In this document: one piece after another, positions 35,889 through 50,704 of the stretch
Numbering within the stretch: the first letter of the stretch is position 1
Layout: the number at the start of each line of letters is the position of its first letter
Sequence record: NZ_CP109675.1
Reading direction: 5' to 3' (one strand)
DNA: 64,000 nucleotides
Source: a plasmid
Notes under the pieces: model-generated
Told to the model about the DNA's origin: nothing
What the model saw: only the letters and a program-made list of their open reading frames with translations
The model's database searches: none
Program-made: the position numbers and the translations under genes

Positions 35889-36119
35889 TTACTCAGGATC
35901 ACTTCTGCCTGTGGACCAGTTATGTATCTGTTCGTCGAGCGCTTCAAGATGCTGATCAATGCTTTCTGCGAGTCGCTCACTTTCAGTCTCCAGCCAGCCG
36001 CTTAATCCGTCCCACTCATAGCACATCTCTTTCAGCTTTTCCGACATAGTCCGAAGTTTATTGCGCTGGCTGCGGGCAACCTTCAGCTCCGTTTTCCACG
36101 GATTGTTTCTCACGGCCAT
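35889..36119 (-). CDS. small hypothetical protein between psiA and hok (flmC-like position)
   Basis: 76 aa ORF overlapping psiA stop. Confidence 0.3.
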   Translation of the reverse strand: MAVRNNPWKTELKVARSQRNKLRTMSEKLKEMCYEWDGLSGWLETESERLAESIDQHLEALDEQIHNWSTGRSDPE

Positions 36120-36841
36120 ATAGACCTCAGCGTGATTTTGTTCGGTACCATCCAGCGCTCCAGCTCTTTCTCCGCCGGTGTTGAGGATCCCGCCACATCA
36201 TGTACATCGAGAACAATGTCTTGCGCACGGTCGTAGTAAGCCTTCACCAGATGAGACAACGAGGGGCTGCGTTCCGTCCACGCCCACAACATTCGCTGGA
36301 TGTCATAGTCCCGTATATCCTGCTGGGACCAGAACTCATACCATGCACGCAGTGTCTCCGGTGTCTGAAATGCCAGGTCGATTTCAGCCTGCCCCACGCG
36401 GTTCTGGTACTTCTCTTCCTTTTCACGGTGTCGCCGTGATTCCTGACGGGAATAAAGATTATCCTCGCGCACTTCCCGCTGCGTGTGGCGCTCTCTGATG
36501 CTGAACGCCTGCTCCGGAAACAGGTTCTGCACCATGTTGGTACCGAGCGGAGGGTAACACAGGCGACCGCGGCTACTGATCAGTATGTCAAACGCCTCTT
36601 CATATCGGGCCAGAGAAATTTTATCGCCCTTCAGCCAGTACGCCCCGCGCACCTGGTTGATCGCCTTTCCACTAATTTTACTGCTACCAGTCAGGAACCG
36701 GAAAAATGCTCTGGAATAGGGATACGGCTGCGGGTGTCGGCTTCCGTACCGCCCGCCCCCCTCTTCTACGGCAATAATGGCTCGTAACGCTGCCTCACGC
36801 TCCGGCAGTTGCGTGACAAGAGAAAGGTGACGAGGGATCAT
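36110..36841 (-). CDS. psiA: PsiA (plasmid SOS inhibition protein A)
   Basis: YPYSRAFFRFLTGS resembles PsiA YPYAGAFFRCLNGS. 243 aa. ATGA-coupled downstream of psiB. Confidence 0.75.
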   Translation of the reverse strand: MIPRHLSLVTQLPEREAALRAIIAVEEGGGRYGSRHPQPYPYSRAFFRFLTGSSKISGKAINQVRGAYWLKGDKISLARYEEAFDILISSRGRLCYPPLGTNMVQNLFPEQAFSIRERHTQREVREDNLYSRQESRRHREKEEKYQNRVGQAEIDLAFQTPETLRAWYEFWSQQDIRDYDIQRMLWAWTERSPSLSHLVKAYYDRAQDIVLDVHDVAGSSTPAEKELERWMVPNKITLRSIWP

Positions 36842-37263
36842 CAGGCCACCTCCATGCGCAGCGTTGAGAGAATATCGAATATTGAGTATCCATCACTGTC
36901 CAGCCTGCTGGTCAGGCTCAGCACATGGTTTATCACAGCAGCGTCAGATTGTGGGCATGAGCGGATACAGGATACTTCCTGCCCTTTTCTCCAGACCAAC
37001 AGCATGATCCAGTCCTGACTAAACTCACCAGGACTACACAGAACCACTTCAAATCGGCCATGAGTGGGCGAAAAACGGATCTGCACGGGAAATAAGCCCC
37101 CGAACTCGCTACGATACTCCCCGTTAACATCCCAGTTTTCAGGCGCACTCAGTGCCCCCATAACAGCGTGTGTCATCTCACGGCGGTAGGAGTAACCAGC
37201 GGCGCGGCAGGTTTCGAAATCTTCACCGATCATGGAGGAAAGCTTAAAGTTTGGCATATTCAT
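36841..37263 (-). CDS. psiB: PsiB (RecA-filament inhibitor)
   Basis: EMTHAVMGALSAPENWDVNGEYRSEFGGLFPVQIRFSPTHGRFEVVLCSPGEFSQDW matches PsiB core. AAGGAG RBS. Confidence 0.85.
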   Translation of the reverse strand: MNMPNFKLSSMIGEDFETCRAAGYSYRREMTHAVMGALSAPENWDVNGEYRSEFGGLFPVQIRFSPTHGRFEVVLCSPGEFSQDWIMLLVWRKGQEVSCIRSCPQSDAAVINHVLSLTSRLDSDGYSIFDILSTLRMEVA

Positions 37264-37305
37264 CAGATATCTCCTTATTGCCGCCCCGTAGGGCGGCTAT
37301 CCTTA

Positions 37306-39291
37306 TCAGGCGGCAATTGCCGCGTTGTCAGTGTCGGTATCGGTGCTGTCTTTTGCATCAGGCTGCGGTGACTGTAACCATGCAGGAACCCAACGGTTCT
37401 GCTTCATAAAGAACTCCGCATGCACTGCCGCGTCGCCTTTCTTCATTTTTTCTGCGTCAGCAGCGGCACCAGTCAGACCTGCATCTTTAAGTGAAGTGAC
37501 TATCTGTGAATGTTTCAGGCTACCGAAGTAGTTCTCTTTTGTAGGCTGCCACCAGTCGCGAAGGTGAAAACCTATCGCGGCCTCAACCGTATCGAGAGGG
37601 CTACGTGATGTGTGTCCATTATCACGCGTCTGTACACCATCTACGGAACAAGCCGCACAGAAGGCCAGCAATGACATCAGTACCTCTCCGTTCAGGGCGA
37701 AGAAGGTCGTGAAGTCCTTCTCCCATCCTGCTGGCAGCAGGGTTTTCAGGCGCTCTTTTTCGGTCATCAGGGCTTCAAACGCTGCGCCTTCTTTACCGGA
37801 TGGGGCGTTCTCAGTGAGGCTGCTGTGAGAAACGGTCAGGTTGATACGGAACGGATGCGGCGTGGTCACACATCCAGCAAAAACGCAGGTACACATACGC
37901 CAGACCATAAGCGCCACAGCCTTTTCAGGTTGCTGCATTAGCGCGGCCTGTACCGCCAGAGTGCGCTCGGATGACATTTTGGTGAGCAGCGGGATGCTGA
38001 TCCCTTCTGCTGCATCAGGTCGATGCATATGAGTCACGGCAGGAGACTGCGCGGAATCCTCTCCGTTACTGTCATGGTCAGGTAAATCAGACATGCGGCA
38101 TATACCACGCTGAATACGAAGCGCACCGTGCATGTAGCTCACCACCACGCCTGATTTTGCTTTCAGATCTTCTGTCCACCCACGAAGCTCAGCGGCATGT
38201 TCAATGAGGGATATTTCGCTGCTAATGGCCTCGGCTTCATCACTGTCAGGATCCAGAGCGTTAAATTTGTCGGACAGTTCATCGATACGGCGGCTGTCAT
38301 CTTCGCTGTAGATTGCATCTGGCTCCGGTAGAATGCGGTAGTCCTTTCCGTCAGGTCCGTAAAGGTTAATTGCAGCCAGACGTCCGGTACCCCACATCCA
38401 GCCCTCTTTTTGATGGATTTCCTGAGCGATCAATTCAAGTTTTTCCAGTACCAGACGTTCAACAAGCAGACTGTCTACTGTTCCGTCCCCTTCCTGCTCA
38501 CTGAACAGATCTTCACGGACAATTCCGCCTGCGGCTTCATAAACTTCCCGCCCGATAAATGCGAAACGTGGATGCGAGACAGAAATTTCACTTTCCGTAA
38601 TACGATTTTTAAGTGCGTTTACGGTAGTGCGTCCCCATTCCTCCTTTACGCTTTCGTAAACAGCAACCTGACGCTCAGGATCGCTTTCAAGACACAACAC
38701 CTGACACTGTTCAACATCAAGCTGACCTTCTGCCAGAAGTGCAAGCAGTGACGGGGCAAGACTGGCAAGTTTGAGCATGCGCTGGACGTGGCGGGAACCG
38801 TACCCAAGCACCTCACCAATCTGCGCGGGAGTTTTTCCCTGCGCCGCCAGTGTACCAAACGCTGTGATCTGCTCGGCAGGGTGCATGGTTTCAAGCTCGT
38901 TGTTCTCGGCGTAAGAAGCCTCAACAGCAAGCTCGTCGCTGACACGTTTAACCGGAACCTGATAATCTGGTTTGATACGCCCCATTTCAGACATGAGCGT
39001 CAGCGCAGTCAGACGCCGACCACCTGCTGCCACACCGTATTTTCCCTCGGGCAGGGCATGGACAACCAGATTGTGAAGCAGTCCGAGGCTTTCAATGGAG
39101 TTAGCCAGTCGCTTAACGCTCTCGGTGGTGTAGGGCATCGTGCGTACGTTCAGCGGTGATTTAATGAGATCGGTCAGCGGAACATACTCAATGACTGCCG
39201 CATCGAGGGCTGTTTTCAGCGCCTCGTTTCCGGCAGTTTTATTCTTACTGGTTTTTTTTGGTGCTTTTGATTTAACATCTGCAACTGTCAT
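37306..39291 (-). CDS. ParB/Sulfiredoxin nuclease-domain protein of leading region (661 aa)
   Basis: N-terminal ParB box GGRRLTA, and HTH. GAGAGG RBS. Confidence 0.8.
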   Translation of the reverse strand: MTVADVKSKAPKKTSKNKTAGNEALKTALDAAVIEYVPLTDLIKSPLNVRTMPYTTESVKRLANSIESLGLLHNLVVHALPEGKYGVAAGGRRLTALTLMSEMGRIKPDYQVPVKRVSDELAVEASYAENNELETMHPAEQITAFGTLAAQGKTPAQIGEVLGYGSRHVQRMLKLASLAPSLLALLAEGQLDVEQCQVLCLESDPERQVAVYESVKEEWGRTTVNALKNRITESEISVSHPRFAFIGREVYEAAGGIVREDLFSEQEGDGTVDSLLVERLVLEKLELIAQEIHQKEGWMWGTGRLAAINLYGPDGKDYRILPEPDAIYSEDDSRRIDELSDKFNALDPDSDEAEAISSEISLIEHAAELRGWTEDLKAKSGVVVSYMHGALRIQRGICRMSDLPDHDSNGEDSAQSPAVTHMHRPDAAEGISIPLLTKMSSERTLAVQAALMQQPEKAVALMVWRMCTCVFAGCVTTPHPFRINLTVSHSSLTENAPSGKEGAAFEALMTEKERLKTLLPAGWEKDFTTFFALNGEVLMSLLAFCAACSVDGVQTRDNGHTSRSPLDTVEAAIGFHLRDWWQPTKENYFGSLKHSQIVTSLKDAGLTGAAADAEKMKKGDAAVHAEFFMKQNRWVPAWLQSPQPDAKDSTDTDTDNAAIAA

Positions 39292-39359
39292 GATTTAGTA
39301 CCTCTCAGTATTAATGATTGTCTTGCCCTGCGGAGTGACAGCTCCGACAGGGCCCCTTC

Positions 39360-39689
39360 TTACTGCTGTTTTCTGGCTCTGTAACTGGCAAGAGCGCGGT
39401 TAAGCAATGCCCCCACGTCGTTCTCAAAGTTCCACGCGCACTTCGTCAAAAACCCTTCTTCACCCCGCACAACAAGCTGAAAATAAGTACCCTGATCGTT
39501 CTCAATACTGACGTTGGTGTACTGCGCCACCAGAGCGGTCGCCTCTTCACGGGTAAACGGCCCCTGAGGCAGCACCACGGGTGCAGTGACAGTACTGCCA
39601 TTCAATAGAGCCGCCAGTTCGTTTTCTTCGGCGGTGGGTTCGCGCAGCAGCACTGGCTGATTCAGAAATTCCTGTAATGTTTTTCCCAC
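39360..39689 (-). CDS. DUF905 (YkfF/YpjJ-like) protein
   Basis: LPQGPFTREEATALVAQYTNVSIENDQGTYFQLVVRGEEGFLTKCAWNFENDVG matches YkfF pattern. Confidence 0.55.
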   Translation of the reverse strand: MGKTLQEFLNQPVLLREPTAEENELAALLNGSTVTAPVVLPQGPFTREEATALVAQYTNVSIENDQGTYFQLVVRGEEGFLTKCAWNFENDVGALLNRALASYRARKQQ

Positions 39690-40302
39690 TGAATACTTCC
39701 TTTAAAAAAGTGGCTGGTTTTAAAACCCATCACCCGTTGAGTTACGGGAGCCGCGGTTTTGACGTTTCGCGGGAACCTGCTGAACTTTCCCGGGGGATAA
39801 AACATCACCCGTTTGAGAACCTTCGCCGCAGGTGCGTAAACGACACCGGCCGAGGCAGATGTCCGGGGCGGACGCAAAAAGTTTTTGCCTGCAAAAAGTT
39901 TTGGTGGCCGTGCGTCAGCATTCACCCTGGACAGCCACGAGGACTGTGGCGGTCTCAGCACCCGGAGGAGGGACTCAAAGGGGTGTAAAAGGACCGGATG
40001 GAATGGGCAGGGACACGCCGCAATGACGGGAAGCCGCGCGCGGCGAAACGACATTGCCCCCTACATCACGACGGGGTATTTACGGCGTGATGCAGGGAGC
40101 GCAGGAAACGGCGCGACTGAGCGGCGCAGCCGGAACGGCTGCTGCAAGCGATGGGGGTTGCGTCATGGGATGGACACCCGCTGCCCCGCAGGGGCCGGGC
40201 AGAGACAGCTTTGCTGGCTCTGTGCGAAGCATGACAGCCCGCCCGGACGCCCACTGCAACAAAGGCAATGAGTTTGATTTACAGCATATCTTACTGAAAA
40301 AA

Positions 40303-40557
40303 TTACTTTTTATTTGCCTCGGCCATTTCGGAATATTGTGGATCGCTGGCTTTCGGCAACTGCTGGCTAAGCTGGCGGTAATGGCGCAACCTTTCCAGAA
40401 AATATTCGCGAAGCTCTTCGGGCACCTCTCGTGCCACAATTTCCGGCACCACTGGCTGATTTAGCCGCTCTTTAAATGCCACACCTGACGCGGCCAGGTC
40501 TACGGCGATCCTGTCCTGATCCTCTTTTGAACGTACCGAAAGATTAAATTCGCTCAT
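40303..40557 (-). CDS. hypothetical 84 aa (start re-called, GAGAGGAAA RBS)
   Basis: ORF only. Confidence 0.35.
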   Translation of the reverse strand: MSEFNLSVRSKEDQDRIAVDLAASGVAFKERLNQPVVPEIVAREVPEELREYFLERLRHYRQLSQQLPKASDPQYSEMAEANKK

Positions 40558-40719
40558 GTTTTTCCTCTCTTTCACGCGCCTGCAACGAGATCGTTGCTGA
40601 CTTTTTCTGCCGGGGCGGTTTGTAACTGCGCCGCAGGCGCGGTAACAACCGCCGGCAGGCAAAGCCTGCCAGGGTTTTTCGCGCGGGCTAACAGGCGGAT
40701 GATACCGCCTGCCAGGTTA

Positions 40720-40911
40720 TCAGTTACCTTTTCCACCCTGCAAAATGAAATGACCGCCGATATACACCGCACGCTGGCAGGTCATGTAATAGCATATTTC
40801 GTCGATCACCTGCTCCGTTCTTAATTCCCGTTGACCATTTTCACGTCGACGGGCGTTAATAATATTTTTGTACTGACGCAGGATGTCACGGGTCTGTGGA
40901 TCAAGTTTCAT
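40720..40911 (-). CDS. hypothetical 63 aa, basic
   Basis: AAGGAG RBS. Confidence 0.3.
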   Translation of the reverse strand: MKLDPQTRDILRQYKNIINARRRENGQRELRTEQVIDEICYYMTCQRAVYIGGHFILQGGKGN

Positions 40912-40953
40912 TTTTATTCTCCTTTGTGGCGGGGCCCTGCCCCGCCTCTGACA

Positions 40954-41454
40954 TCAACCGTTGAACACGTAGCCATCCAGAAATACCAGACCATCCAGGA
41001 ACAAATCCCGCGCCCAGGCTCCCATATCGAAATAGCAACGCAGCGATTCCGGAATGTCATTGAGAAGGCCGCACTCTTCTGCCATAGTCCAGGCGTAGTC
41101 CTCTTCGCTCTCAGCTTCTCCGCAATAAGCATCCTCGAAGGCGTCATAATCACACTCTCCGGAGTATTCCACCCAGGCAATAAATGCAGCATCCATACCG
41201 TCTTCTACTGCGCGCTTGTAGGCTTCAATGAAATTCCAGTCAACGGAAGATTCGGATGCAAATGCTGACGGGATCCCTTCCCAGTCCTGGAACATGAGTT
41301 CCGGGTCGGATTCATTGGCGTGCAGCTCGTTGCAGGCTTCCAGAAACTCTGCTTTATCATCAAAGTCGGTGAGGTCAAACCATTTACCGTAGAGGCTACC
41401 GCAGTTGTATTTGTGGTATGTACCTACATAAATCGCCGGGGTGGTAGTGTTCAT
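40954..41454 (-). CDS. ardA: ArdA antirestriction protein (DNA mimic)
   Basis: MNTTTPAIYVGTYHKYNCGSLYGKWFDLTDFDDKAEFLEACNELHANESDPELMFQDWEGIP. Acidic, 166 aa. GGAGG RBS. Track ORF's upstream extension is the repeat element, not coding. Confidence 0.9.
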   Translation of the reverse strand: MNTTTPAIYVGTYHKYNCGSLYGKWFDLTDFDDKAEFLEACNELHANESDPELMFQDWEGIPSAFASESSVDWNFIEAYKRAVEDGMDAAFIAWVEYSGECDYDAFEDAYCGEAESEEDYAWTMAEECGLLNDIPESLRCYFDMGAWARDLFLDGLVFLDGYVFNG

Positions 41455-41494
41455 AAAACTCCTCCAGTGTCTGTGTCGTCTGAGTTCCGGCTTA

Positions 41495-41721
41495 CGCCGT
41501 GCCGACACGACAGCCCGACTTCGAGCGGAAGATGCAGGGGCGACACCGGAGGCCGCAGCGCAGATAAACAGCGATGACGGTCTGGACGGTTCTCCCGCGA
41601 ATATTGAGCGGGAGAACGACGGGAAGAACGGCATCAGGCGTAAAAATCTGCGACCGGGCGAGGATGGCGGCGGAGCGAACCCTTGCATCTGAAGCGATCG
41701 GGCTAAAGTGAAGGCACGGCG
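41495..41721. repeat. ~226-bp GC-rich element with terminal inverted repeats (CGCCGTGCC...GGCACGGCG), copy A, 5' of ardA
   Basis: Near-identical to 42660-42885 and 45272-45497. Diverged copy 44412-44584. Confidence 0.8.
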
Positions 41722-41844
41722 TTAGCCGCAGACCGCACGGACGTTTTCACCTGCGTCCCCGTAACATCGTGGAGGGGGCGCCGGTAAAGCGGAGCGTGCG
41801 ACATCCTTTTCGCAATAAGGCGGGGCGCATTGCCCCGCCCAAAA

Positions 41845-42624
41845 TCAGGCGGCAATCCGGATGCCGGAGAAGGATTTCATCATCGCGTCAATCTCGGTTC
41901 GTGCGCTGCTGACCACATCCCGCAGCCAGTGTCTGTCAAACCAGTCGCGGGATGGGCTGTCAGGGTGACGAAGGGCATAAGGCACGTGGGTCTGCCCGAC
42001 TGTACGGCCATTGCATTCCAGACGGATTTGCAGACGGCGAAAGGTTTCCTTCCCGTCGAGTACCGCTTTAAGACGCGCGTCGAGCGTCTCATTATCCCAC
42101 TGCGCATCATCCTGCACCTGCTCCACTTCCGTTACTGTCAGGAGGAAATTACGGGTTCGGCGGGTAAATACCAGCGGTTCAGCGGCGGGGCGCAAGGCTT
42201 CCATCAGGCGGTATCCGGCGGATGCCACGCAGCTACAGACGTGGTTAATCTCGTCACGCAGGGCTTTCAGCAGACAGAGGATATGTTTCGTGGACATAGC
42301 CTCAGGGCAATTATCATATTCAAGCGAAATGGTTCCGGCATGAGCCTTACGATGCCCCAGCGAATTACGATAAAGGCGGACAATCAGTTCACTTCCTGCC
42401 AGTAATGACAGCAGCACCTTCATTGCCTGATCGGACATCAAACCACGCAGTGCAATCTCAGGTAACAGACGCTGCAACTGTAAAGCATCGAGCTGGCCAT
42501 AGAACGCAACGCCTTCTCCTCTGGAGTAATTCAGGCTTGTATCGATATCCATGTTGGCTGGCCAGCCGCGGGCTACGAGCGTGTTTCGGGTATGACGGTG
42601 CATAAAGCGGTAAGCAATGGTCAT
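41845..42624 (-). CDS. hypothetical leading-region protein (259 aa; start re-called, GAGGAG RBS)
   Basis: ORF. No motif recognised. Confidence 0.45.
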   Translation of the reverse strand: MTIAYRFMHRHTRNTLVARGWPANMDIDTSLNYSRGEGVAFYGQLDALQLQRLLPEIALRGLMSDQAMKVLLSLLAGSELIVRLYRNSLGHRKAHAGTISLEYDNCPEAMSTKHILCLLKALRDEINHVCSCVASAGYRLMEALRPAAEPLVFTRRTRNFLLTVTEVEQVQDDAQWDNETLDARLKAVLDGKETFRRLQIRLECNGRTVGQTHVPYALRHPDSPSRDWFDRHWLRDVVSSARTEIDAMMKSFSGIRIAA

Positions 42625-42659
42625 GATATTCTCCTCTTCTGAATGCGGCGACGTCTTCG

Positions 42660-42885
42660 CCGTGCCGACACGACAGCCCGACATCGAGCGGAAAATGCAG
42701 GGGCGACACCGGAGGCCGCAGCGCAGATAAACAGCGATGACGGTCTGGACGGTTCTCCCGCGAATATTGAGCGGGAGAACGACGGGAAGAACGGCATGAA
42801 GCATTAAATCACTGCGACCGGGCGAGGATGGCGGCGGAGCGAACCCTTGCATTTGCAGCGTTCGGGCTAAAGTGAAGGCACGGCG
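42660..42885. repeat. repeat element copy B, 5' of 41845-42624
   Basis: Sequence identity with copy A. Confidence 0.8.
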
Positions 42886-42986
42886 CTCACATCCGCCGCG
42901 CCAGCGCGGCATAAAAAGCGGAGTTAACGACATCCTCTTTCGCTGTGAATTGTCACCGGTTGCCGGGGACGCTCCCCCGGCCGTTC

Positions 42987-43409
42987 TCAGGCTACCAGCG
43001 CGTCTTTCAGTGCGTAGACGTCATTCCTTGCTTCCTTTACGGAATCGGGTTCAGGCCGCCCGGCCTCCCAGGCCATTCCGGCGCGATGCTCCAGCTCACA
43101 CTCATAGTCGCGCAGGACGCGTGCAAGTAAAGCTGCGGGTACACTCACCTGACGGTTTGCCGCTTCCCGCTGATGGGTCAGGAGATCGCTGACAGTCAGA
43201 TTATTTACCCCCTCCTGGCGGTATTGCGTCATTTTCATTTCACCAAGCGCCTTCATCACCGCCCGGATTTCAGCCTCGTCCGGTTCTGGCTGGGTTTCAC
43301 GGCAGGCCACGCTAATCCCCTCTTCCGTCCAGACCAGCAGGACCAGGGGTTCGTCAGACGTGAACATGGTTTCAAGCTGTACACAAAGTTCTTTGCGGGT
43401 TCCGTACAT
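42987..43409 (-). CDS. hypothetical 140 aa
   Basis: ORF only. Confidence 0.35.
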   Translation of the reverse strand: MYGTRKELCVQLETMFTSDEPLVLLVWTEEGISVACRETQPEPDEAEIRAVMKALGEMKMTQYRQEGVNNLTVSDLLTHQREAANRQVSVPAALLARVLRDYECELEHRAGMAWEAGRPEPDSVKEARNDVYALKDALVA

Positions 43410-43464
43410 TTTTTTATCTCTTTCGTAAGTGGTTACAGGCCGGGCATCAGCCCGGCAGGGTCAG

Positions 43465-43686
43465 TCAGCCCTGAAAGGTTTCGTCCAGCACCAGGGCTTC
43501 GCGGTAGGCTTCCAGAAGCAGGGTGTTGATCCGGCGCAGGGTCTGGGCGGCCATACGTTCAGCCAGCGTTGCCGCGTCGTGCCGGTGCTGAGATTCGAGG
43601 CGGTTCAGCAGCATCCGCACGTCACACATGGCATTGCTGAGCTCGGCCACGTCCGCGCGCAGGGATTCAAGGCCCGGGTAGTTCAT
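43465..43686 (-). CDS. hypothetical 73 aa, overlaps methyltransferase stop by 4 nt
   Basis: Operon context. Confidence 0.3.
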   Translation of the reverse strand: MNYPGLESLRADVAELSNAMCDVRMLLNRLESQHRHDAATLAERMAAQTLRRINTLLLEAYREALVLDETFQG

Positions 43687-44375
43687 GCCGCCTCCGGATA
43701 ATCAGGGTAAAACGTACCGTCATTGGCCGCCGGCATCCTTCTCGCCCGTTCAACCTGTGCCAGACGGCGAACGCCGGCGGCGTGGTACTGCTCAAGCATC
43801 TCGATCCCGATATAGCGGCGGCTGGCTTCGGCGGCGGCCACGCAGGTGGAGCCGCTACCGGCGAACGGGTCAAGGACAATGGCCCCCGGACGCGTGAGCG
43901 ATTCAATCAGTGGCCGCAGGCTCTGCACCGGCTTCTCCGTCGGATGGTGTCTGTTGCCCGTGTATTTCCAGGGGATCACGTCCGGGATGGGGCGGTCCGG
44001 GGTTTGCGGTCGCCCCTTCGCGAGCAGGTAAGCGTTCTCATGGGTGTAGCCCACGAACGTTGATTTGGAGGCATAACTCTTCGCAAAAACGATATGGCCA
44101 ACAACGCGGAACCCGGCCGATTTCCACGCATTGAGAAACAGATCTGCGCGGTTCCATGCGTAAAAGCTCACCATCAGACTGTCGTTTTTGAGTACGCGGT
44201 ACATTTCGTGGCACGCTGGCTGAAGCCATTCCGACGAATTGTCCCCGGCCAGAGTGCGACCGGTACGGTCCTTAAAGCCAACCAGATACGGGGGATCGGT
44301 AAGAATAAAATCAACGGCACGTGCCGGAAAACGGGACATCACCTGCACGCAGTCACCCAGGATATAACGGGACAT
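43683..44375 (-). CDS. orphan DNA methyltransferase, beta-class N6A/N4C (motif IV DPPY before motif I FAGSGST)
   Basis: ILTDPPYL and LDPFAGSGSTCVAA. 230 aa. GAGGAG RBS. No adjacent endonuclease. Confidence 0.8.
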   Translation of the reverse strand: MSRYILGDCVQVMSRFPARAVDFILTDPPYLVGFKDRTGRTLAGDNSSEWLQPACHEMYRVLKNDSLMVSFYAWNRADLFLNAWKSAGFRVVGHIVFAKSYASKSTFVGYTHENAYLLAKGRPQTPDRPIPDVIPWKYTGNRHHPTEKPVQSLRPLIESLTRPGAIVLDPFAGSGSTCVAAAEASRRYIGIEMLEQYHAAGVRRLAQVERARRMPAANDGTFYPDYPEAA

Positions 44376-44411
44376 AGACACACTCCTCTCTGATATGCGG
44401 CACCCTGTTGC

Positions 44412-44584
44412 GCCGTGCCGCCACAAAAACCCGGCTCTGAGCGGAGGGCGCAGGGGCGACGCCGCAAGCCGCAGCGCAAGCCTTTCACGGGCTGAATGCA
44501 CCGTGAAAGGTGCGAACGGGTGAGGACGGAGACAACGTGAACCCTTGCGACCGCAGCGGCCGGGTTAGCGTGAAGGCACGGCGT
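44412..44584. repeat. repeat element copy C (diverged), 5' of methyltransferase operon
   Basis: Shares termini GCCGTGCCG...GAAGGCACGGCG and internal blocks. Confidence 0.6.
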
Positions 44585-44771
44585 TGAACACGCCGCCGGC
44601 TGGCGGCAGAAAGGCGGAGGGCACCGACATCCTTTGGTACTGATTCTGGTAGCTGAAGTAGCCTCCCGTGTATGACAGAATGACCATAAGTGCGTGTCAG
44701 TACACCACTTTGTAGGATCATAAGCCTGGTATGTTTTGGGACGCCTCCGGTCGGTGGCGTCCTTTTTTCCG

Positions 44772-45239
44772 TTAGCCCCCCTTTACGTGGTCGATAGCGA
44801 ACTGCAATGTGTCCCAGTTAAAACCGATGCAGGCATCATGGCTGTGGTAACAGACACGCATGGCTTCAGCAATCTCCCCCTCTGTCAGGCTGTCATTGAG
44901 GGACATAAAGTCATCAGCCAGCCAGAACGTTCCCATACACAGCGCATCCTGCGGATACTGCTGTAGCCGTGCGATGTGATCTGCCACGGTTACTCCCTCG
45001 CGGCAGGCAGATAGCGACGGCAGCACACGATCGGCAATGTCATTCCAGTTCCACTCTTCGTCCTCCGGAACTGCCTCTTGAATAGTGCCGGTTTCCACAC
45101 CCGGCATCAGGGAAAGCTGCTCCAGCACCTCCCCCAGGTAAAGTCGTTCTCCGCAGGCATCCTCACTCCACAGATAATGGTTGTTGATATACACGGCAAA
45201 CTCGCCGTTGTTGAGTTCAATACAGGTCAGTCTGAACAT
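44772..45239 (-). CDS. hypothetical acidic protein 155 aa
   Basis: ORF only. Confidence 0.4.
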   Translation of the reverse strand: MFRLTCIELNNGEFAVYINNHYLWSEDACGERLYLGEVLEQLSLMPGVETGTIQEAVPEDEEWNWNDIADRVLPSLSACREGVTVADHIARLQQYPQDALCMGTFWLADDFMSLNDSLTEGEIAEAMRVCYHSHDACIGFNWDTLQFAIDHVKGG

Positions 45240-45271
45240 GGCTGTGTCCTAAGCATCCGGCACCCAGTTGC

Positions 45272-45497
45272 ACCGTGCCGACACGACAGCCCGACTTCGA
45301 GCGGAAGATGCAGGGGCGACACCGGAGGCCGCAGCGCAGATAAACAGCGATGACGTTCTGGACGGTTCTCCCGCGAATATTGAGCGGGAGAACGACGGGA
45401 AGAATGGCATCAGGCGTAAAAATCTGCGACCGGGCGAGGATGGCGGCGGAGCGAACCCTTGCATCTGAAGCGATCGGGCTAAAGTAAAGGCACGGCG
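45272..45497. repeat. repeat element copy D, 5' of 44772-45239
   Basis: Sequence identity with copy A. Confidence 0.8.
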
Positions 45498-45573
45498 GGG
45501 AACTTCTTTAGGCAACATAGAGTTAAAAAATGGGCAAAGCAAAAACTTGAAAGTACACTCAATAAAGTAATAA

Positions 45574-45593
45574 TACTGTATATAAATACAGTT
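45574..45593. promoter_or_regulatory. LexA (SOS) box TACTGTATATAAATACAGTT
   Basis: CTGT-N8-ACAG consensus, 11 nt upstream of impA RBS. Confidence 0.8.
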
Positions 45594-45604
45594 CGGAGGT
45601 GCCT

Positions 45605-46033
45605 ATGTTTGAATTATTGCGTGTCGATTGCGAGCCGGAAATTATCCCAATCCCTCTTTATAGCGAGGGATGCCCGGCGGGGTTCCCGTCCCCGGCGCAG
45701 GACTATGTCGAAGCCGAACTTGACCTCAACGATTACTGTATATCCCGACCCAGTTCGACATATTTTGTGCGAGCTATTGGTAATTCCATGACTGATATTG
45801 GGCTACATTCTGGCGATCTGATGATTGTTGATAAAGCCGAAAATGCACACCACGGCGATATCGTTATAGCTGAGATTGAAGGTGAATTTACTGTTAAGAG
45901 ATTATTGTTGAAACCGAGACCAGGGTTACAGGCAATGAATCCAGCCTACCCTACTCTATGGCCAGAACCTGAGCAGCTACAAATTTTCGGTGTCGTAACT
46001 GCCTTTGTACATAAAACCCGGGGACATGACTGA
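45605..46033 (+). CDS. impA: ImpA/UmuD-like S24 peptidase subunit of translesion polymerase
   Basis: [35 protein letters not shown] 45605. Confidence 0.85.
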
Positions 46034-47304
46034 TGTTCGCCCTGGCAGATGTGAACAGCTTCTATGCGAGTTGTGAGAAGGTCTTTCGTCCTGACTTACG
46101 TGATAAACCGGTGGTCGTTCTTAGCAATAATGATGGTTGTGTAATAGCCAGATCGAAGGAAGCGAAACAGCTTGGGATCAAAATGGGGATTCCCTGGTTC
46201 CAGCTGAAGACAATGCAGTTCCCGGAGAAAGTGCTTACGTTTTCCAGCAATTATGAGCTTTACGCGAGTCTGAGCAACCGGGTCATGGCACATCTGGAAG
46301 AACTGGCGCCCCGCGTAGAGCAGTACAGCATCGACGAGATGTTCCTGGACATTCGCGGCATCGATGGCTGTACCGACTTTGAAGATTTCGGCCGGCAGCT
46401 GCGCGAGCACGTCCTAAGAGGAACCGGACTGACAATTGGCGTTGGGATGGGGCCAACAAAAACTTTAGCAAAATCAGCGCAATGGGCTTCAAAAGAGTGG
46501 CCGCAATTTGGGGGCGTGCTGGCCCTGACTACTGACAATCTTCGTAGGACGGAGAAACTGCTCTCACTGCAGCCAGTAGAGGAAATCTGGGGGGTTGGTC
46601 GCCGCATAGGCAAAAAGCTGAATACATACGGCGTGACGACTGCGCTACAGCTGGCGCGCATGAATCCTGCCTTTGTACGCAAAAACTTTACCGTAGTGCT
46701 GGAGCGAACCGTACGCGAGCTGAACGGTGAGGCCTGTATATCTCTTGAAGATGTACCGCCCGCGAAGCAGCAGATTGTCTGCAGCCGATCATTCGGGGAG
46801 CGCATCACCACTTACGAAGCGTTGCGGCAGGCTATCTGCCAGTATGCCGAACGCGCGGCTGAAAAACTGCGGGGAGAGCATCAGTTCTGCCGGCACATAT
46901 CGGTCTTTATCAAAACCTCCCCTTTCGCAGTCAACGAAGCGTATTACAGCAACGTGGCCAGTGAAAAACTTCTTGTGCCTACCCGTGACACCCGGGACAT
47001 CATTAACGCCTCAGTAAAGGCCCTGGATCGTATCTGGATCGACGGGCATAGATATGCAAAGGCTGGCGTAATGCTGAATGACTTCACCCCTACGGGAGTA
47101 GCACAGTTAAATCTTTTCGATGACGTTAAGCCGCAGGAACGAAGCGAGGAGCTTATGAAAGCCCTGGATGGCATAAACCATTCAGGGCTCGGGAGGGTAT
47201 GGTTTGCTGGCCGCGGAATTGCACCAGAATGGCAAATGAAAAGAGAGATGCTTTCTCCGGCATACACGACCAGGTGGTCCGATATCCCCAAAGCCTCAAT
47301 TTGA
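46033..47304 (+). CDS. impB: ImpB/UmuC-like Y-family DNA polymerase
   Basis: [41 protein letters not shown]. 423 aa. ATGA coupling. Confidence 0.9.
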
Positions 47305-47307
47305 GTA

Positions 47308-47697
47308 TCAGAAGAGGCCTTTCATTTTGACCCGGGCCTCTTCCAGTCGACGCTGCTCATCATCTTCAGCAATTTCAGGCTTGATTGCAGAATCAAAATT
47401 TCCTGCGCCCAGTTCTGCAAGCACATCACGGATATTGGCCTGGGATGGCTTCCATCCCGTTGTCTGACTGATTAAACCTACCAGGCTATCCGCCGTGAAA
47501 CTCTTATCCAACAACAGCGCAAGTAAGCCAGGAAGCCGCGGGTCGAGGTGGTGAAGTGCTAAGCCGGAAATAAGCGCTCTCCTATATAAATCTCCTCTAT
47601 CGTTCCGTGGGACAGAATCAATAATGTCTAAAGACACATTGTCCGCCACCTGGTCCGGATGAAGATAAACAGTAAACTTCTTCCGTTCCTCGCTCAC
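47308..47697 (-). CDS. stbB: StbB/ParR-like partition adaptor
   Basis: GTG start 4 nt after stbA stop with AAGGGGA RBS. 129 aa. Confidence 0.5.
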   Translation of the reverse strand: MSEERKKFTVYLHPDQVADNVSLDIIDSVPRNDRGDLYRRALISGLALHHLDPRLPGLLALLLDKSFTADSLVGLISQTTGWKPSQANIRDVLAELGAGNFDSAIKPEIAEDDEQRRLEEARVKMKGLF

Positions 47698-47701
47698 AGT
47701 C

Positions 47702-48673
47702 CTATTCCCCTTTAAATGCAGCGATGGCTTCTACGAGTGATGTTTGCGGTGAATCCATCATGACAACCTTCGAGCCCAGATGTTGCCATGCTGCTTTAAC
47801 AGCATCCTCGATCAGTGGCGCACCGCCACCAACAATATAAACGCGGTTAACGTCCCTAAACCCAGCCAAGTCATCGACAACCTGGGCACCCAGTGTAGCG
47901 ATCGCGCTATCGATGGTATCCAACACCAGTGCCGTCTTGCTTTCGTCGTTGATAACCTGCCGGACGAAGTCAGCGTTTGTACGCTGTTTGATAAGTTCAT
48001 CGGCGACCATAGCACTCGTGTTGCTGGAAGCCATTTTTAACGCCGTGAGTGCAGCGTTCGTTACCAGCGATACGCCGATATCAGAATTTCCGTGTATCGC
48101 GCTGACAGAGTCGAACTGGCCAACGATAACGCCAACGTCGAGAGTTGTACCTCCGAGGTCAATCACCAGAGACTTTTCGAACTGCCCTACATTGTCTTTC
48201 ACCAGACGTTCAAATACGGCAGGCAAGGATTCTGGCATGACTTCGACGTGCTCGATGGTAAACACCTCGCCTTTGTTCAACTTGACTGGACGCATCAGGT
48301 TGTCGATTTTCCTCTGAATATTCAGCTCATTCTTCTGACAATCCCTTGTGTAGAACTCACTGATAGGCAAAGTAACAGTCAGTGAGACAGGCTGAGGTTT
48401 CAGCCCGCTGTTCAGAAGTGCATGGTGAACCGCCAGAACGTTTACATCGGTATATTGATACTCAATATGAGTAGTAAGAATGGATTCATTGCTGACTTCG
48501 TCATAGGTGTATTTTTTACCTTCAAGCTCATAGTTGAAGGTCTGACGTACGCCCATACCTTCCACCTTCCAACCCTGACGAAAAGAGTTAGATGACAATG
48601 ACTTATAAAGTTTCTTATTGTGGAGCCATGCAAGTTTTACAGTTGTAGAACCATCATCACAATACACTTTCAT
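47702..48673 (-). CDS. stbA: StbA/ParM actin-like segregation ATPase
   Basis: MKVYCDDGSTTVKLAWL. 323 aa. Start re-called. Confidence 0.75.
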   Translation of the reverse strand: MKVYCDDGSTTVKLAWLHNKKLYKSLSSNSFRQGWKVEGMGVRQTFNYELEGKKYTYDEVSNESILTTHIEYQYTDVNVLAVHHALLNSGLKPQPVSLTVTLPISEFYTRDCQKNELNIQRKIDNLMRPVKLNKGEVFTIEHVEVMPESLPAVFERLVKDNVGQFEKSLVIDLGGTTLDVGVIVGQFDSVSAIHGNSDIGVSLVTNAALTALKMASSNTSAMVADELIKQRTNADFVRQVINDESKTALVLDTIDSAIATLGAQVVDDLAGFRDVNRVYIVGGGAPLIEDAVKAAWQHLGSKVVMMDSPQTSLVEAIAAFKGE

Positions 48674-48686
48674 CCTGAACCCCTTA

Positions 48687-48896
48687 ATACTCAAATTGAG
48701 AAAAATGATTGAACTTAAGTGCCTAAGCACTCAGATTGAGTATTAAATCATAAGTATGAAATATTAAAACACAAGTAATATTTATGATTTATTAAAAAAT
48801 AAATCATATCTCACACTTCATACTTCATATTTTTGATTACAGTTGTTGACTATAACTACGTATGTGACAAAATAAATCATACTTCACACATCATAT
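48687..48896. repeat. centromere/operator repeats: CTCA(A/G)ATTGAG x2 (48687-48743) and AAATCATA...CATATTT iterons (48744-48764, 48799-48830, 48872-48896)
   Basis: Read directly. Lies between divergent stbA and parA. Confidence 0.5.
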
Positions 48897-48909
48897 TTAT
48901 GAGGCAGAA

Positions 48910-49548
48910 ATGATTACTGTCGTAGGTGGAAACAAAGGCGGTTCAGGTAAAACTACAACGGCATCAAACTTAGCAATAGCTCTAGCCCATGAGGGCCAAG
49001 ACGTATGCCTGTTAAATGGAGACTTACAACGGACGGCCGCTAAGCACCATGCTGAGCGTGAAGCATCGGGGATAGAGCCAACTTTCACGCTCATCGAAAA
49101 ATTCGATAATCTGACACAAACCCTTCGAGCATTAGACGAAAAGTATGATCATGTAATCGTGGATGTGGCAGGCAGAAACTCAAGAGAGTTCATTACTAGT
49201 GGAGTAGTCGCACATCAGATCATTGCACCATTACAATGCTCACAGCCCGACCTTGATACATTGACGGAACTTGCTCAGCAGATTGAAGCTATGCGTGATC
49301 TCAACCCTGAACTGAAGGTCTATTGCTTACAAAGCATGGCCACAACAAACCCAGTGCTAAGAGGAAATGAGCGGAAGGAGTTTCTGGAATACCTTGAAGA
49401 GTTTCCAACTATTGAAACGCTGCAAACAGTAATCTGTTTCCGCAAGGTCTATCGAGATTGCATGAGCAATGGAACGGGTGTCGTAGAAACGAATAATGAA
49501 GCGGCTAAAGCAGAAATTATGCAGCTAATGAAAGAGGTATTCGCATAA
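48910..49548 (+). CDS. parA: ParA/ParF-type small Walker ATPase
   Basis: MITVVGGNKGGSGKTTTASNLA deviant Walker A. 212 aa. Confidence 0.8.
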   Translation: MITVVGGNKGGSGKTTTASNLAIALAHEGQDVCLLNGDLQRTAAKHHAEREASGIEPTFTLIEKFDNLTQTLRALDEKYDHVIVDVAGRNSREFITSGVVAHQIIAPLQCSQPDLDTLTELAQQIEAMRDLNPELKVYCLQSMATTNPVLRGNERKEFLEYLEEFPTIETLQTVICFRKVYRDCMSNGTGVVETNNEAAKAEIMQLMKEVFA

Positions 49549-49826
49549 TGGTTAAAAAGCCGAGCCAGCAAGCGACAAGCAGAACAGGTGTCACAGCAGA
49601 ACAAGCTGAAGCCCTCGCGCAGCGCCTTGCCGATAAACCCTACGGAGCACCAGAAAAACCGGAACCTGAAAAACAGTGCCGCACGACAATCTCATTAGGG
49701 GAGTCTATGTTAGTGAAGGTCGAAGATATAGCACTGCGGAACAAGCGTAACGGGAAAGATCCTAAAAACGTCAGTGCAATAGTCAGAGAAGCCCTTGAAC
49801 TTTACTTTCAGAAAACTGGCGAGTAA
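49548..49826 (+). CDS. ParG-like RHH centromere-binding protein
   Basis: TAATG coupling. C-terminal RHH-like NVSAIVREALELYF. 92 aa. Confidence 0.5.
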   Translation: MVKKPSQQATSRTGVTAEQAEALAQRLADKPYGAPEKPEPEKQCRTTISLGESMLVKVEDIALRNKRNGKDPKNVSAIVREALELYFQKTGE

Positions 49827-49838
49827 GAACGATATTAC

Positions 49839-49865
49839 ATCATAAGTATGATGTGTGAAGTATGA
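49839..49865. repeat. inverted copy of iteron (ATCATAAGTATGATGTGTGAAGTATGA) downstream of parG
   Basis: Reverse complement of 48872-48896 motif. Confidence 0.55.
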
Positions 49866-49867
49866 CT

Positions 49868-49890
49868 TAGGCCGCATTAGCGGCCTTTCC
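49868..49890. terminator. hairpin AGGCCGCATTAGCGGCCT between convergent parG and recombinase
   Basis: 7-bp GC stem, weak T tract. Confidence 0.45.
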
Positions 49891-49924
49891 AATATCATGC
49901 AGGTCCTCATAGCTTACAGAGAAG

Positions 49925-50704
49925 TTAAATGGTTCCTTTAAGTAATGACACAGCTTCAGTCTCCGGCATCTGGAACTGCACGCGGTGACGCGCCGCCACA
50001 TCCAGCGCAAACACTTTCGTGTACACCTCCGTCGAGCTGATGCTCTTATGCCCCATTAAACTCTGAAGCACCTTGAGAGGAATACCGGCATACAGCATGT
50101 GCATGGCATAGCTGTGGCGGAATGTGTGCGGTGTCACCGGCACGGAGAACGTCACCCCGTCAGCCGCTGCTGCTTCAACCGCTTCGCTGAGCCAGGTGCG
50201 GACCGTCCGGTCGGTAATTTCCCAGATGCGCGCCTTCTCGGTTCTGCCGCTTCGCTTGTTACGTCGTTCAAGAGGTATTTTCAGCGTGGCCACCATCATT
50301 TCCAGCTGGCTGACATAGCTCGCATCGGAAAGCGGTACCAGCCGGTGAGCCTGACTGCCGGCGGGTGCCCGGCCTGCCGTTCTGGCGGCTTTTTCAGTCC
50401 TTTGTTTGAGTGTGGCCAGCTGCACGAAAGGGTAGGGTGGCACCAGGGAAAAATCACTCCGGGTCAGCGCCAGCGCCTCGTTAATACGGGCGCCGGTGTT
50501 CCAGAGGGTGGCCAGCAGCATCTTGCGGTGCAGATCAGGCACATAGTGGAGCAGGGCGCTCACTTCCGGCGCCAGCAGATATTTCGGCAGTTCGTCCTGA
50601 ACGAGGGCCATCTGGCGCAGGGCCAGTGCGGCAGGGTAGTCGATGGCCACCGGCAGCTGCGCGGCCGAAAATGAGACACCCTGGCCGGGTATTGCCGGCA
50701 TCAT
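49925..50704 (-). CDS. tyrosine site-specific recombinase (ResD/XerD-like multimer resolvase)
   Basis: HTFRHSYAMHML...GHKSISSTEVYT (R-H-R-Y). 259 aa. Confidence 0.8.
   Translation of the reverse strand: MMPAIPGQGVSFSAAQLPVAIDYPAALALRQMALVQDELPKYLLAPEVSALLHYVPDLHRKMLLATLWNTGARINEALALTRSDFSLVPPYPFVQLATLKQRTEKAARTAGRAPAGSQAHRLVPLSDASYVSQLEMMVATLKIPLERRNKRSGRTEKARIWEITDRTVRTWLSEAVEAAAADGVTFSVPVTPHTFRHSYAMHMLYAGIPLKVLQSLMGHKSISSTEVYTKVFALDVAARHRVQFQMPETEAVSLLKGTI

Follow-up and report, generated by a model that had tools for sequence, protein, structure and literature searches.

Leading region and repeats

The sequence analysed here (the window, 64,000 nucleotides of plasmid record NZ_CP109675.1) belongs to an IncI-like Enterobacter plasmid and constitutes its leading region. 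Its oriT region is 83% identical to the oriT of the IncI1 plasmid pESBL, and the oriT core has a nikA-like gene on one side and the leading region on the other. The relaxase genes lie to the left of oriT, and the leading genes are all on the - strand. By sequence, the + strand carries the oriT nick consensus, at approximately 30238; thus it is the transferred strand and the template for the leading genes. Four copies of a repeat (A to D), each 5' of a - strand gene, are found in this region, as the preliminary description had reported. The features are listed below, where ssp2 and ssp3 stand for class 2 and class 3 single-stranded DNA (ssDNA) promoters.

30190 to 30245, + strand: oriT core, GCATTTGTGATA...TATTACAAATGC inverted repeat, then ACATCCTG|T
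40954 to 41454, - strand: ardA, first gene past copy A (Pfam ArdA, E 2.6e-33)
41495 to 41721, + strand: copy A, long form, ssp2 type, 227 nt (repeat family and alignment)
41589 to 41617, + strand: apical hairpin of the long form, GTTCTCCCGCGAATATTGAGCGGGAGAAC, in copy A (inverted repeats), inside an approximately 55-nt block absent from copy C
41845 to 42624, - strand: orf259, first gene past copy B (phrog_8919, function unknown, E 2.9e-20)
42658 to 42885, + strand: copy B, long form, ssp2 type, 228 nt (alignment and ssp2 profile)
42987 to 44375, - strand: methylase operon past copy C (Pfam)
42987 to 43409, - strand: DUF1380 gene of the methylase operon (Pfam DUF1380, 3.9e-14)
43465 to 43686, - strand: orf73, in the methylase operon
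43683 to 44375, - strand: N6/N4 DNA methylase (Pfam N6_N4_Mtase, 9.5e-38)
44411 to 44583, + strand: copy C, short diverged form, ssp3-like, 173 nt (fold and profile)
44772 to 45239, - strand: orf155, first gene past copy D (weak phrog_10258 match)
45271 to 45497, + strand: copy D, long form, ssp2 type, 227 nt (alignment and ssp2 profile)

Copy D is the final element ahead of umuDC. The start codons of ardA (41454), orf259 (42624), the methylase (44375) and orf155 (45239) are each preceded by a Shine-Dalgarno sequence and lie 40, 33, 35 and 31 nt, respectively, from the base of the adjacent hairpin. Neither orf259 nor orf155 had a match in Pfam. The 166-aa protein that begins at 41454 has its Pfam ArdA domain at residues 8-163, and the long open reading frames that open with MQGFAPPPSSPGRRFLRL are mechanical read-throughs of the repeat; the apparent N-terminal extensions of ardA and its neighbours had been correctly read as translations of the element. 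In the methylase operon, the gene order (methylase, small ORF, DUF1380) is the same as in pESBL and F.

Identity and folding of the four copies

Copies A, B and D are nearly identical (global identity of 98.2% for A and D, 94.7% for A and B, and 93.0% for B and D), whereas copy C is only 53-55% identical to them and differs chiefly by the absence of the apical block of approximately 55 nt. A 23-base signature in the 3' arm occurs four times in the window and not once in 100 shuffles of it. The terminal inverted repeats that had been described, CGCCGTGCC / GGCACGGCG, are present; a 5' start common to all copies is not, as copy D opens with CACCGTGCC rather than CGCCGTGCC.

When folded with DNA parameters, every copy forms a single long imperfect hairpin. 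For copy A, the folding energy is -71.8 kcal/mol on the + strand (z -8.2) and -63.0 kcal/mol on the - strand (z -6.2); for copy C, the corresponding values are -57.3 (z -3.8) and -55.4 kcal/mol (z -4.4). The apical hairpin of copy A recurs in the other long copies, at 42752-42780 in B and 45365-45393 in D. This apical hairpin is helix 11 of the consensus structure, in which 7 of the 9 pairs show compensatory changes. A search of positions 36000-50000 against Rfam matched no family at E up to 1.

Conservation among homologues

We collected 47 long-form and 35 short-form sequences from many Enterobacterales. Among the long forms, 95.2% of the cells were paired, with compensatory changes in 29 of the 54 pairs and a covariation score of 0.33, compared with 0.134 for shuffled and 0.05-0.08 for slid alignments. 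The short forms gave 96.6% paired, compensatory changes in 17 of 39 pairs, and a score of 0.25 (0.107 shuffled, 0.01-0.06 slid). The transferred strand was more stable than its complement in 47 of 47 long forms (mean -58.3 versus -49.7 kcal/mol) and 35 of 35 short forms (-53.2 versus -46.8 kcal/mol), although these sequences are related by descent, so that such counts overstate the number of independent events. Both fold and covariation show the ssp2-type copies as a long imperfect stem-loop on the transferred strand.

The position of the element relative to genes is also conserved. In 126 of 133 elements, an ORF with a Shine-Dalgarno sequence ahead of it starts at a distance of 20-45 nt from the hairpin base, versus 5 of 136 on the opposite side. 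The genes that come first after the element group into only 8 clusters, chiefly those of KlcA/ArdB, M.EcoGIX-like methylase and ArdA; 27 short forms elsewhere precede the M.EcoGIX-type methylase family. The element is present in thousands of plasmid records, and in the three plasmids inspected closely (pESBL, F and that of the window) its copies are confined to the leading region.

Promoter-like boxes

Each copy carries a pair of -35/-10-like boxes that reads toward the adjacent gene, located on the gene-distal (3') arm.

41683 to 41709, + strand: boxes of copy A, TTGCAT (41683-41688), 15-nt spacer, TAAAGT (41704-41709)
42847 to 42873, + strand: boxes of copy B, TTGCAT, 15-nt spacer, TAAAGT
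44545 to 44571, + strand: boxes of copy C, TTGCGA, 15-nt spacer, TAGCGT
45459 to 45485, + strand: boxes of copy D, TTGCAT, 15-nt spacer, TAAAGT

The match to consensus is weak (3/6 and 4/6 in A, B and D; 4/6 and 3/6 in C), and the non-template arm has a short spacer of 15 nt, as against 19 nt for the template arm. Folding each copy as ssDNA had been suggested earlier as a check, and it yielded stable hairpins with this weak box pair; in A, B and D, the boxes are rebuilt in the stem and face the gene. The minimum-energy fold of copy A leaves AAA in the -10-like hexamer unpaired.

The consensus of the homologues likewise bears TTGnnn-N15-TAnnnT on the gene-distal arm, directed at the gene. The invariance of TA...T and CTTG in our alignments A4 and A5 is partly circular, since the retrieval pattern required them. 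Among intact copies retrieved by the 5' arm only, which do not match the search pattern and so give pattern-independent counts, TAnnnT was retained in 22 of 23 and TTG in 19 of 23. Positions -11 to -9 form a mismatch bubble: they were unable to pair in 40 of the 47 long forms, and each of these positions was paired in only 1-4 of the 35 short forms. A simple scan of 40900-45650 found no sigma-70-like promoter on the sense strand.

Relation to known ssDNA promoters

Class 1 of these promoters comprises Frpo, ssi1-3 and ssp1 (Masai & Arai 1997; Bates et al. 1999; Couturier et al. 2023). The copies share with this class a leading-region hairpin on the transferred strand, rebuilt promoter boxes and the presumed principle of zygotic induction, but lack its A/T-rich apex, AAAAnTTTT. 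In blastn searches with five known Frpo/ssi sequences, none of the four copies was matched; the known sequences instead matched a separate element at 39726-40063 and its flanks. We rejected the copies as Frpo/ssi elements proper because they have no sequence similarity to F ssiD/Frpo or ColIb ssi1-3.

The class 2 promoters (ssp2) of pESBL lie upstream of ardA and klcA and were characterised by RNA-seq induction and 5' RACE starts (Wen et al. NAR 2025, PMC12672017); in F, the gene under the control of ssp2 is yfgB/ardB (Fraikin et al. bioRxiv 2026, 10.64898/2026.01.09.698686). We found that A, B and D are, by sequence comparison, homologues of ssp2. They matched pESBL ssp2 at E 3e-10 and F ssp2 at 1.5e-8 by blastn, and a profile built from six ssp2 sequences of the pESBL type, with no window sequence among them, matched them end to end (A, 2.7e-15; B, 4.7e-16; D, 4.7e-14). 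In the other direction, a long-form profile that includes copies A, B and D and excludes pESBL-type sequences gave E values of 7e-27 for pESBL ssp2 and 3e-26 for F ssp2. The three copies share with ssp2 the covarying hairpin, the apical module, the leading-region site, one cargo gene (ardA), and the sequence blocks GCCGTGCC...GCAGGGGCG...AAGCCGCAGC and GACCGGGTGA...CCCTTGCAT...CCGGCTAAnnT...GGCACGGC; the transferred strand is the template of the neighbouring gene in each. They differ in several respects: they are globally no more than 56-60% identical to the validated pESBL elements, the window has three ssp2-type copies where pESBL has two and F has one, and two of the three precede the uncharacterised genes orf259 and orf155.

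Copy C matched ssp2 weakly, in the two arms only. Its relation is to ssp3, the class 3 ssDNA promoter found upstream of the M.EcoGIX methylase operon in pESBL (PMC12672017) and in F. A short-form profile, which includes copy C and excludes pESBL sequences, gave E values of 6e-17 for pESBL ssp3 and 4e-16 for F ssp3, while a single-sequence search with pESBL ssp3 reached copy C at only E 1.3e-3. At the level of profiles, then, copy C appears homologous to ssp3. The closest published sequence is the candidate 'Frpo* 1' (Samuel et al. 2024), with 75% identity over 179 nt (E 2e-27). Copy C resembles ssp3 in its small size, in having the common basal promoter stem without the ssp2 apical module, and in preceding a homologous set of genes, the N6_N4 methylase followed by the small ORF and DUF1380. 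However, pairwise identity to pESBL ssp3 is 59%; the apical hairpin of copy C, CGGGCTGAATGCACCG, is missing from pESBL ssp3, most short forms resembling copy C in having such a hairpin (CGGGCTGAATGCNCCG); and the pESBL element precedes DUF1281, whereas copy C directly precedes the methylase.

Because of this homology to validated elements and the strand geometry, we consider it very probable that the four repeats are promoters working on ssDNA, with A, B and D of the ssp2 type and C a short ssp3-like form. The earlier suggestion of an ssDNA promoter module used four times thus stands, except for its assignment to the Frpo/ssi type. The type of element was already known, and the copies in the window join a recently described family of ssDNA promoters. 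The new point is a small one, that ssp2 and ssp3 appear to form one family.

Alternative explanations

The hairpins might mainly serve complementary-strand synthesis, either as an ssi-like source of RNA primers or as an F ssp2-like stall for the replisome, with gene expression secondary. Priming of DNA synthesis by Frpo transcripts provides a precedent, as does the F ssp2 stem, which acts, besides its promoter activity, as a roadblock to complementary-strand synthesis that is resolved by UvrD (bioRxiv 10.64898/2026.01.09.698686), and the stems of the ssp2 homologues A, B and D are GC-rich and very stable. In F, however, the roadblock is reported to add to promoter activity and not to replace it, and ssp3 has no roadblock activity (same study). 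The tight start-codon spacing (126/133) and the conserved boxes indicate selection for driving the adjacent gene, and we regard a primary role in strand synthesis as unlikely.

A second alternative places the function in RNA: the repeats would be intercistronic hairpins (stabilisers, processing sites or leaky terminators) in a long polycistronic mRNA made from double-stranded DNA. The sense strand of copy A does fold well (z -6.2), and a simple scan placed terminator-like - strand sites at the bases of copies A and B. Yet with DNA parameters the sense strand folds less stably than its complement in all long and short forms (47/47 and 35/35), and with RNA parameters it does so in 45 of 47 long and 30 of 35 short forms; the G-T wobble positions are on the + strand; the conserved TAnnnT in the bubble has no obvious role in RNA; and the scan of 40900-45650 found no upstream sense-strand promoter for such a transcript. 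We judge this explanation quite improbable.

Small non-autonomous mobile elements (MITE- or REP-like), inserted upstream of genes by chance, would account for the terminal inverted repeats CGCCGTGCC / GGCACGGCG, the multiple near-identical copies and the thousands of plasmid records. Chance insertion is very hard to reconcile with the fixed orientation and start-codon distance, the 8 downstream gene clusters, the restriction to the leading region in pESBL, F and the window, and covariation that runs along the whole stem and not the ends alone; flanking direct repeats of the kind left by target-site duplication are absent at all four copies.

We give almost no credence to conventional double-stranded promoter/operator modules under a plasmid repressor, modelled on the IncN CUP repeats of pKM101 and R46, which we take to carry a conventional repressor-controlled promoter: the analogy is that the CUP repeats, too, recur ahead of ardA, ardB and other genes of a leading region, but the window repeats have no homology to those of R46 (nhmmer with the long- and short-form profiles found nothing in R46 at E up to 10), the sense-strand scan found no sigma-70-like promoter, an annotated relative lacks ardK and ardR genes, and the strand asymmetry of the fold is unexpected for a duplex operator.

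Proposed mechanism and implications

If the repeats are ssDNA promoters, as we favour, the + strand would pass into the recipient with its 5' end first, starting at the oriT nick near 30238, and each repeat on it would fold into a long imperfect hairpin. The gene-distal arm would act as the non-template strand of a sigma-70-type promoter (TTGnnn-15 nt-TAnnnT) and the gene-near arm as the template, with the -35 part within the paired helix and positions -11 to -9 within the conserved 3x3 mismatch bubble. RNA polymerase would initiate within the basal stem, a few bases in, opposite A41716 in copy A (by sigma-70 geometry, with T41500 as the template base) and opposite A42880, A44578 and A45492 in B, C and D. 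The transcript would then leave the hairpin through a 5' UTR of approximately 37-46 nt into ardA, orf259, the methylase operon or orf155. Synthesis of the complementary strand would remove the hairpin and leave the boxes pointing away from the genes, so that expression would be expected to stop. For this plasmid we infer the start sites, the use of sigma-70 and the dependence on ssDNA. By analogy with F ssp2, the ssp2-type copies may also act as replication roadblocks.

A tentative extension, which we hold to be possible but doubtful, is that ssp2 and ssp3 are a single modular family, in which a shared basal promoter stem carries an exchangeable apex of approximately 55 nt (41563-41650 in copy A) that decides whether the hairpin also stalls synthesis of the complementary strand. 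If this were true, copy C would represent a third, candidate type of apex. A stretch of 4 kb at the distal end of the leading region would contain a row of three ssp2-type roadblocks, and the whole oriT-proximal 11 kb would remain single-stranded for longer, giving a longer burst of anti-defence expression.

Four repeated hairpins on the transferred strand

The preliminary description had noted four copies of a hairpin-capable element, each next to a minus-strand gene of the leading region. We found all four at 41495-45497 as direct repeats on the + strand; the relaxase region lies further left:

27091-30147 (-): nikB-like and nikA-like genes, relaxase region
41495-41721 (+): copy A, direct repeat, in front of ardA
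42658-42885 (+): copy B, direct repeat, in front of orf259
44411-44583 (+): copy C, direct repeat, 173 nt, in front of the DNA methylase operon
45271-45497 (+): copy D, direct repeat, in front of orf155

Copies A, B and D are 93-98% identical to one another, while copy C is 53-55% identical to them and, for lack of an apical block of about 55 nt, is 173 nt long against their 227-228 nt. A signature of 23 bases from the 3' arm has four matches in the window and none in 100 shuffled versions. Folding with DNA parameters confirmed that every copy forms a single long imperfect hairpin, at -71.8 kcal/mol on the + strand (z -8.2) and -63.0 on the - strand (z -6.2) for copy A, and at -57.3 and -55.4 kcal/mol, respectively, for copy C. 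The terminal inverted repeats reported earlier are present (CGCCGTGCC and GGCACGGCG); the common start sequence is not shared by copy D, which opens with CACCGTGCC. Scanning 36-50 kb against Rfam gave no match with an E value of up to 1.

The window is 99.9% identical across 25 kb to the Enterobacter hormaechei plasmid pEh7_3 (NZ_CP126853.1), an IncI-like plasmid with a MOBP relaxase. To the right of the nikA-like gene, an intergenic region with 83% identity to the oriT region of the IncI1 plasmid pESBL holds an inverted repeat, after which comes ACATCCTG|T on the + strand. We take ATCCTG|T in this region to be the MOBP nick motif of R64 and RP4, and the putative nick position rests on this conserved motif and the pESBL identity. 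From oriT to umuDC (45.6 kb), the annotated genes are on the - strand except two. Because the oriT motif is on the + strand and the genes are on the - strand, the + strand is predicted to be the one transferred; it would enter 5' to 3' from about 30.2 kb and be the template of these genes. Within the leading region the four copies stand at the distal end, at 11-15 kb from oriT. All genes adjoining them are on the - strand, with start codons 31-40 nt from the hairpin bases (ardA 40 nt, orf259 33, the N6/N4 DNA methylase 35, orf155 31).

Relation to described ssDNA promoters

The repeats had been proposed to be Frpo/ssi-type modules, active solely on the incoming single strand. The kind of promoter is supported, but homology to the classic sequences was not found: the Frpo/ssi sequences (class 1) in supplementary file 4 of Samuel et al. 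2024 (PMC11541004) match a separate element at 39726-40063 and none of the four copies. The same paper lists 'Frpo*' candidates, and the copies match two of these, 'Frpo* 1' and 'Frpo* 3'. Using RNA-seq, Wen et al. 2025 (PMC12672017) identified six early-induced operons of pESBL, with a 5' RACE start site for each, and distinguished three classes: class 1 is ssi/Frpo, class 2 lies upstream of ardA and klcA, and class 3, which they called unlike the others, lies upstream of the M.EcoGIX operon. Later papers named these ssp1, ssp2 and ssp3.

Copies A, B and D align with the ssp2 elements of pESBL (blastn E 3e-10) and F (1.5e-8). A profile built from six pESBL-type ssp2 sequences alone matches the three copies end to end (E 5e-16 to 5e-14), and a profile of the remaining long forms, with copies A, B and D and without the pESBL-type sequences, finds pESBL ssp2 at 7e-27 and F ssp2 at 3e-26. 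The short-form profile, with copy C included and pESBL left out, matches pESBL ssp3 (6e-17), F ssp3 (4e-16) and the ssp2 elements (about 1e-18). At profile level, then, classes 2 and 3 are homologous; ssp2 and ssp3 have a common basal stem and differ at the apex. Copy C is tied to ssp3 less directly than A, B and D are to ssp2: the identity to ssp3 is 59%, a single-sequence search gives E 1e-3, and the apical hairpin of copy C is missing from pESBL ssp3.

Mosaic elements in two loci from other records (L105, about 2744-2777 and 5853-5886; L051, about 1938-1972) carry ssp2/ssp3 central blocks (GCAGGGGCG...GCCGCAGCGCA...GCGAACGGGCGAGGA...CCCTTGC) in a different basal stem, one resembling the Frpo* 5/7 type. 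These mosaics suggest module exchange between promoter classes.

Promoter-like boxes in the stem

RNA polymerase would transcribe the folded + strand toward lower coordinates; given this direction, the 5' arm, nearer the gene, is the template, and the 3' arm, followed from loop to base, supplies the non-template strand. On the 3' arm, TTGCAT and TAAAGT stand 15 nt apart in A, B and D, as do TTGCGA and TAGCGT in copy C. Promoter-like boxes are thus present in the stem as a TTG/TAnnnT pair on the gene-distal arm, pointing toward the gene; the spacer is 19 nt on the 5' arm. The TTG block is part of a nine-pair helix (ATGCAGGGG with CCCTTGCAT), and T-12 and T-7 sit in invariant A-T pairs whose neighboring pairs covary. 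Because our retrieval pattern itself demanded CTTG and TA...T, we repeated the test on copies retrieved by the 5' arm only that fail the pattern. TAnnnT survives in 22 of the 23 intact copies and TTG in 19 of them; the three middle bases vary freely. Positions -11 to -9 are unable to pair in 40 of 47 long forms and are each paired in only 1-4 of 35 short forms; they are a conserved bubble of variable sequence. Transcription would start opposite A41716, A42880, A44578 and A45492, as placed by sigma-70 geometry only, giving 5' UTRs of about 37-46 nt.

On duplex DNA the boxes face away from the genes. Conventional sense-strand promoters were considered and rejected, there being no sigma-70-like site on the sense strand in 40900-45650. 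The profile-level homology to ssp2/ssp3, the fold, the boxes and the gene spacing support reading the repeats as probable ssDNA promoters.

In F, ssp2 is reported also to stall complementary-strand synthesis until it is opened by UvrD, an effect that ssp3 does not have (bioRxiv 10.64898/2026.01.09.698686). Stalling may well be an additional role of A, B and D, as in F. If the hairpins served only to prime or stall complementary-strand synthesis, the gene spacing and the boxes would be left unexplained.

Spread and structural covariation

A search of PLSDB with copy A hit 3681 plasmid records, mostly Klebsiella. An exact-pattern scan of one genome per species yielded 101 stretches, nearly all from Enterobacterales (Erwinia, Pantoea, Enterobacter, Klebsiella, Yersinia pestis, Salmonella, Kosakonia, Rahnella and others), in two length classes of about 170 nt and about 220-231 nt. 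Exact matches also occur on short contigs of Streptomyces, Leucobacter, Ferruginibacter and Oscillibacter assemblies (L041, L052, L055, L071), and those in L041 and L071 are pESBL-like ssp2 sequences. Contaminating enterobacterial plasmid DNA seems the likeliest source.

Table. Pairing and covariation in the two forms; the sequences share ancestry, so that independent events are fewer than the counts suggest.
Long form, 47 non-identical sequences: cells paired 95.2%; compensatory pairs 29/54; covariation 0.33; column shuffles 0.134; partners slid 0.05-0.08
Short form, 35 sequences: cells paired 96.6%; compensatory pairs 17/39; covariation 0.25; column shuffles 0.107; partners slid 0.01-0.06

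With DNA parameters, all 47 long and all 35 short forms fold more stably in the transferred-strand orientation than in the complementary one (means of -58.3 versus -49.7 kcal/mol for the long form and -53.2 versus -46.8 for the short). With RNA parameters this is so in 45 of 47 long and 30 of 35 short forms. The asymmetry argues that selection on the fold acts at the transferred DNA strand rather than the mRNA, and it makes a structure acting at the RNA level a disfavoured explanation. Wobble pairs number 92 G-T and 27 A-C, a strand test that we judged weak because two G-T-dominated pairs account for most of the surplus and because the + strand had served for the structure prediction; the two-strand energies were used instead.

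Downstream genes and annotation

In 126 of 133 elements, the hairpin base lies 20-45 nt from the start of an ORF of at least 45 codons with a Shine-Dalgarno sequence in front; on the opposite side, 5 of 136 have such an ORF at this distance. The first downstream proteins, 127 of them distinct, form eight clusters:

KlcA/ArdB antirestriction: 38
M.EcoGIX-like methylase: 34
ArdA: 31
orf155 family: 13
orf259 family: 5
DUF1281: 4
Singletons: two

Behind long forms stands mostly ArdA; behind short forms, mostly the methylase, KlcA and orf155. In the window, orf259 and orf155 each stand alone behind an ssp2-type element, and in other species members of their families again come first after such elements. 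Both are candidates for early-acting or anti-defence proteins. The orf259 product (41845-42624, -) belongs to phrog_8919 and equals in length, the one property compared, a 258-aa hypothetical protein upstream of klcA in pESBL and F. The orf155 product (44772-45239, -) has no Pfam family.

A MITE is disfavoured, as the copies have no target duplications beside them and their context is fixed, and IncN CUP-type duplex promoters find no support, the CUP repeats of R46 having no homology to the window repeats.

The N-terminal extensions annotated on ardA and its neighbors are translated element, as had been argued: the long MQGFAPPPSS... ORFs read through the repeat, and a start at 41454 gives a 166-aa protein that the ArdA domain fills. 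On a near-identical plasmid, the reverse strand of copy A (41492-41731, -; CP043768.1 99756-99995) bears the older PGAP label 'DUF1472 domain-containing protein'. Neither the annotated frame (Pfam, NCBIfam) nor two read-through ORFs (Pfam) match a current model; the label dates from older annotation, and what it covers is very likely a translated hairpin.

Other features of the window

The element at 39726-40063 (+) is a classic Frpo/ssiD homologue (class 1, ssp1; 70% identity to F ssiD, 357 nt). About 37 nt separate its base from the GTG start at 39689, which opens onto DUF905, ParB-like, psiB and psiA genes; F and pESBL have an ssb gene behind ssp1, whereas this element has none. At 34600-34976 (+), a stretch with 78% identity to the Salmonella candidate 'Frpo* 5' of Samuel et al. 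2024 directly adjoins the start of a gene at 34327-34599 (-) and folds, per 240 nt, at -65 kcal/mol on the + strand versus -49 on the - strand.

A conserved box on the transferred strand, AAAGCGGAG-N5-7-CGACATCCTT (+), occurs at 41791-41806, 42920-42935 and 44616-44632, 40-170 nt past the 3' ends of copies A, B and C, with the terminator of the upstream operon on one side and the hairpin on the other. Copy D has no such box behind it; in other species, 59 of 142 elements do. A related box, GGAGCGC...GCGCGAC, ends the ColIb ssi sequences and has a window copy at 40096-40116.

The GC-rich stretch at about 32040-32280 also folds very stably on the + strand (-66.7 versus -57.9 kcal/mol); it matches none of the known ssp/Frpo sequences, and the nearest - strand start codon (31669) is about 370 nt off. 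Two copies of a 19-nt near-palindrome, AAGTGCAGAATCTGCACTT, at 32326-32344 and 32383-32401, in an A/T-rich stretch just upstream of a + strand gene starting near 32418, look like operator sites. Just past the orf155 stop codon, 44741-44770 (+) holds a hairpin, GGGACGCC...GGCGTCC, followed by TTTTTT. As an intrinsic terminator it would act solely on rightward (+ strand) transcripts, the direction in which the copy C boxes point on duplex DNA.

Significance

The preliminary finding was correct and its interpretation is supported, for a type of element already described in 2024-2026. What is new here is modest: the profile-level evidence for ssp2 and ssp3 as one family, together with the covariation and strand-asymmetry support, the conserved bubble at -11 to -9, the small number of downstream gene families and the breadth across Enterobacterales. 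The signature and the two profiles find the family throughout that order, and the relatedness of ssp2 and ssp3 suggests a swap experiment on what makes ssp2 a replication roadblock. Recognizing the element mends gene calls, both the long N-terminal extensions and the old 'DUF1472 protein', and makes orf259 and orf155 candidates for early or anti-defence genes. The elements are predicted to set when an incoming resistance plasmid first expresses its genes, and would switch on anti-restriction proteins, a protective methylase and uncharacterised genes before the DNA is double-stranded.
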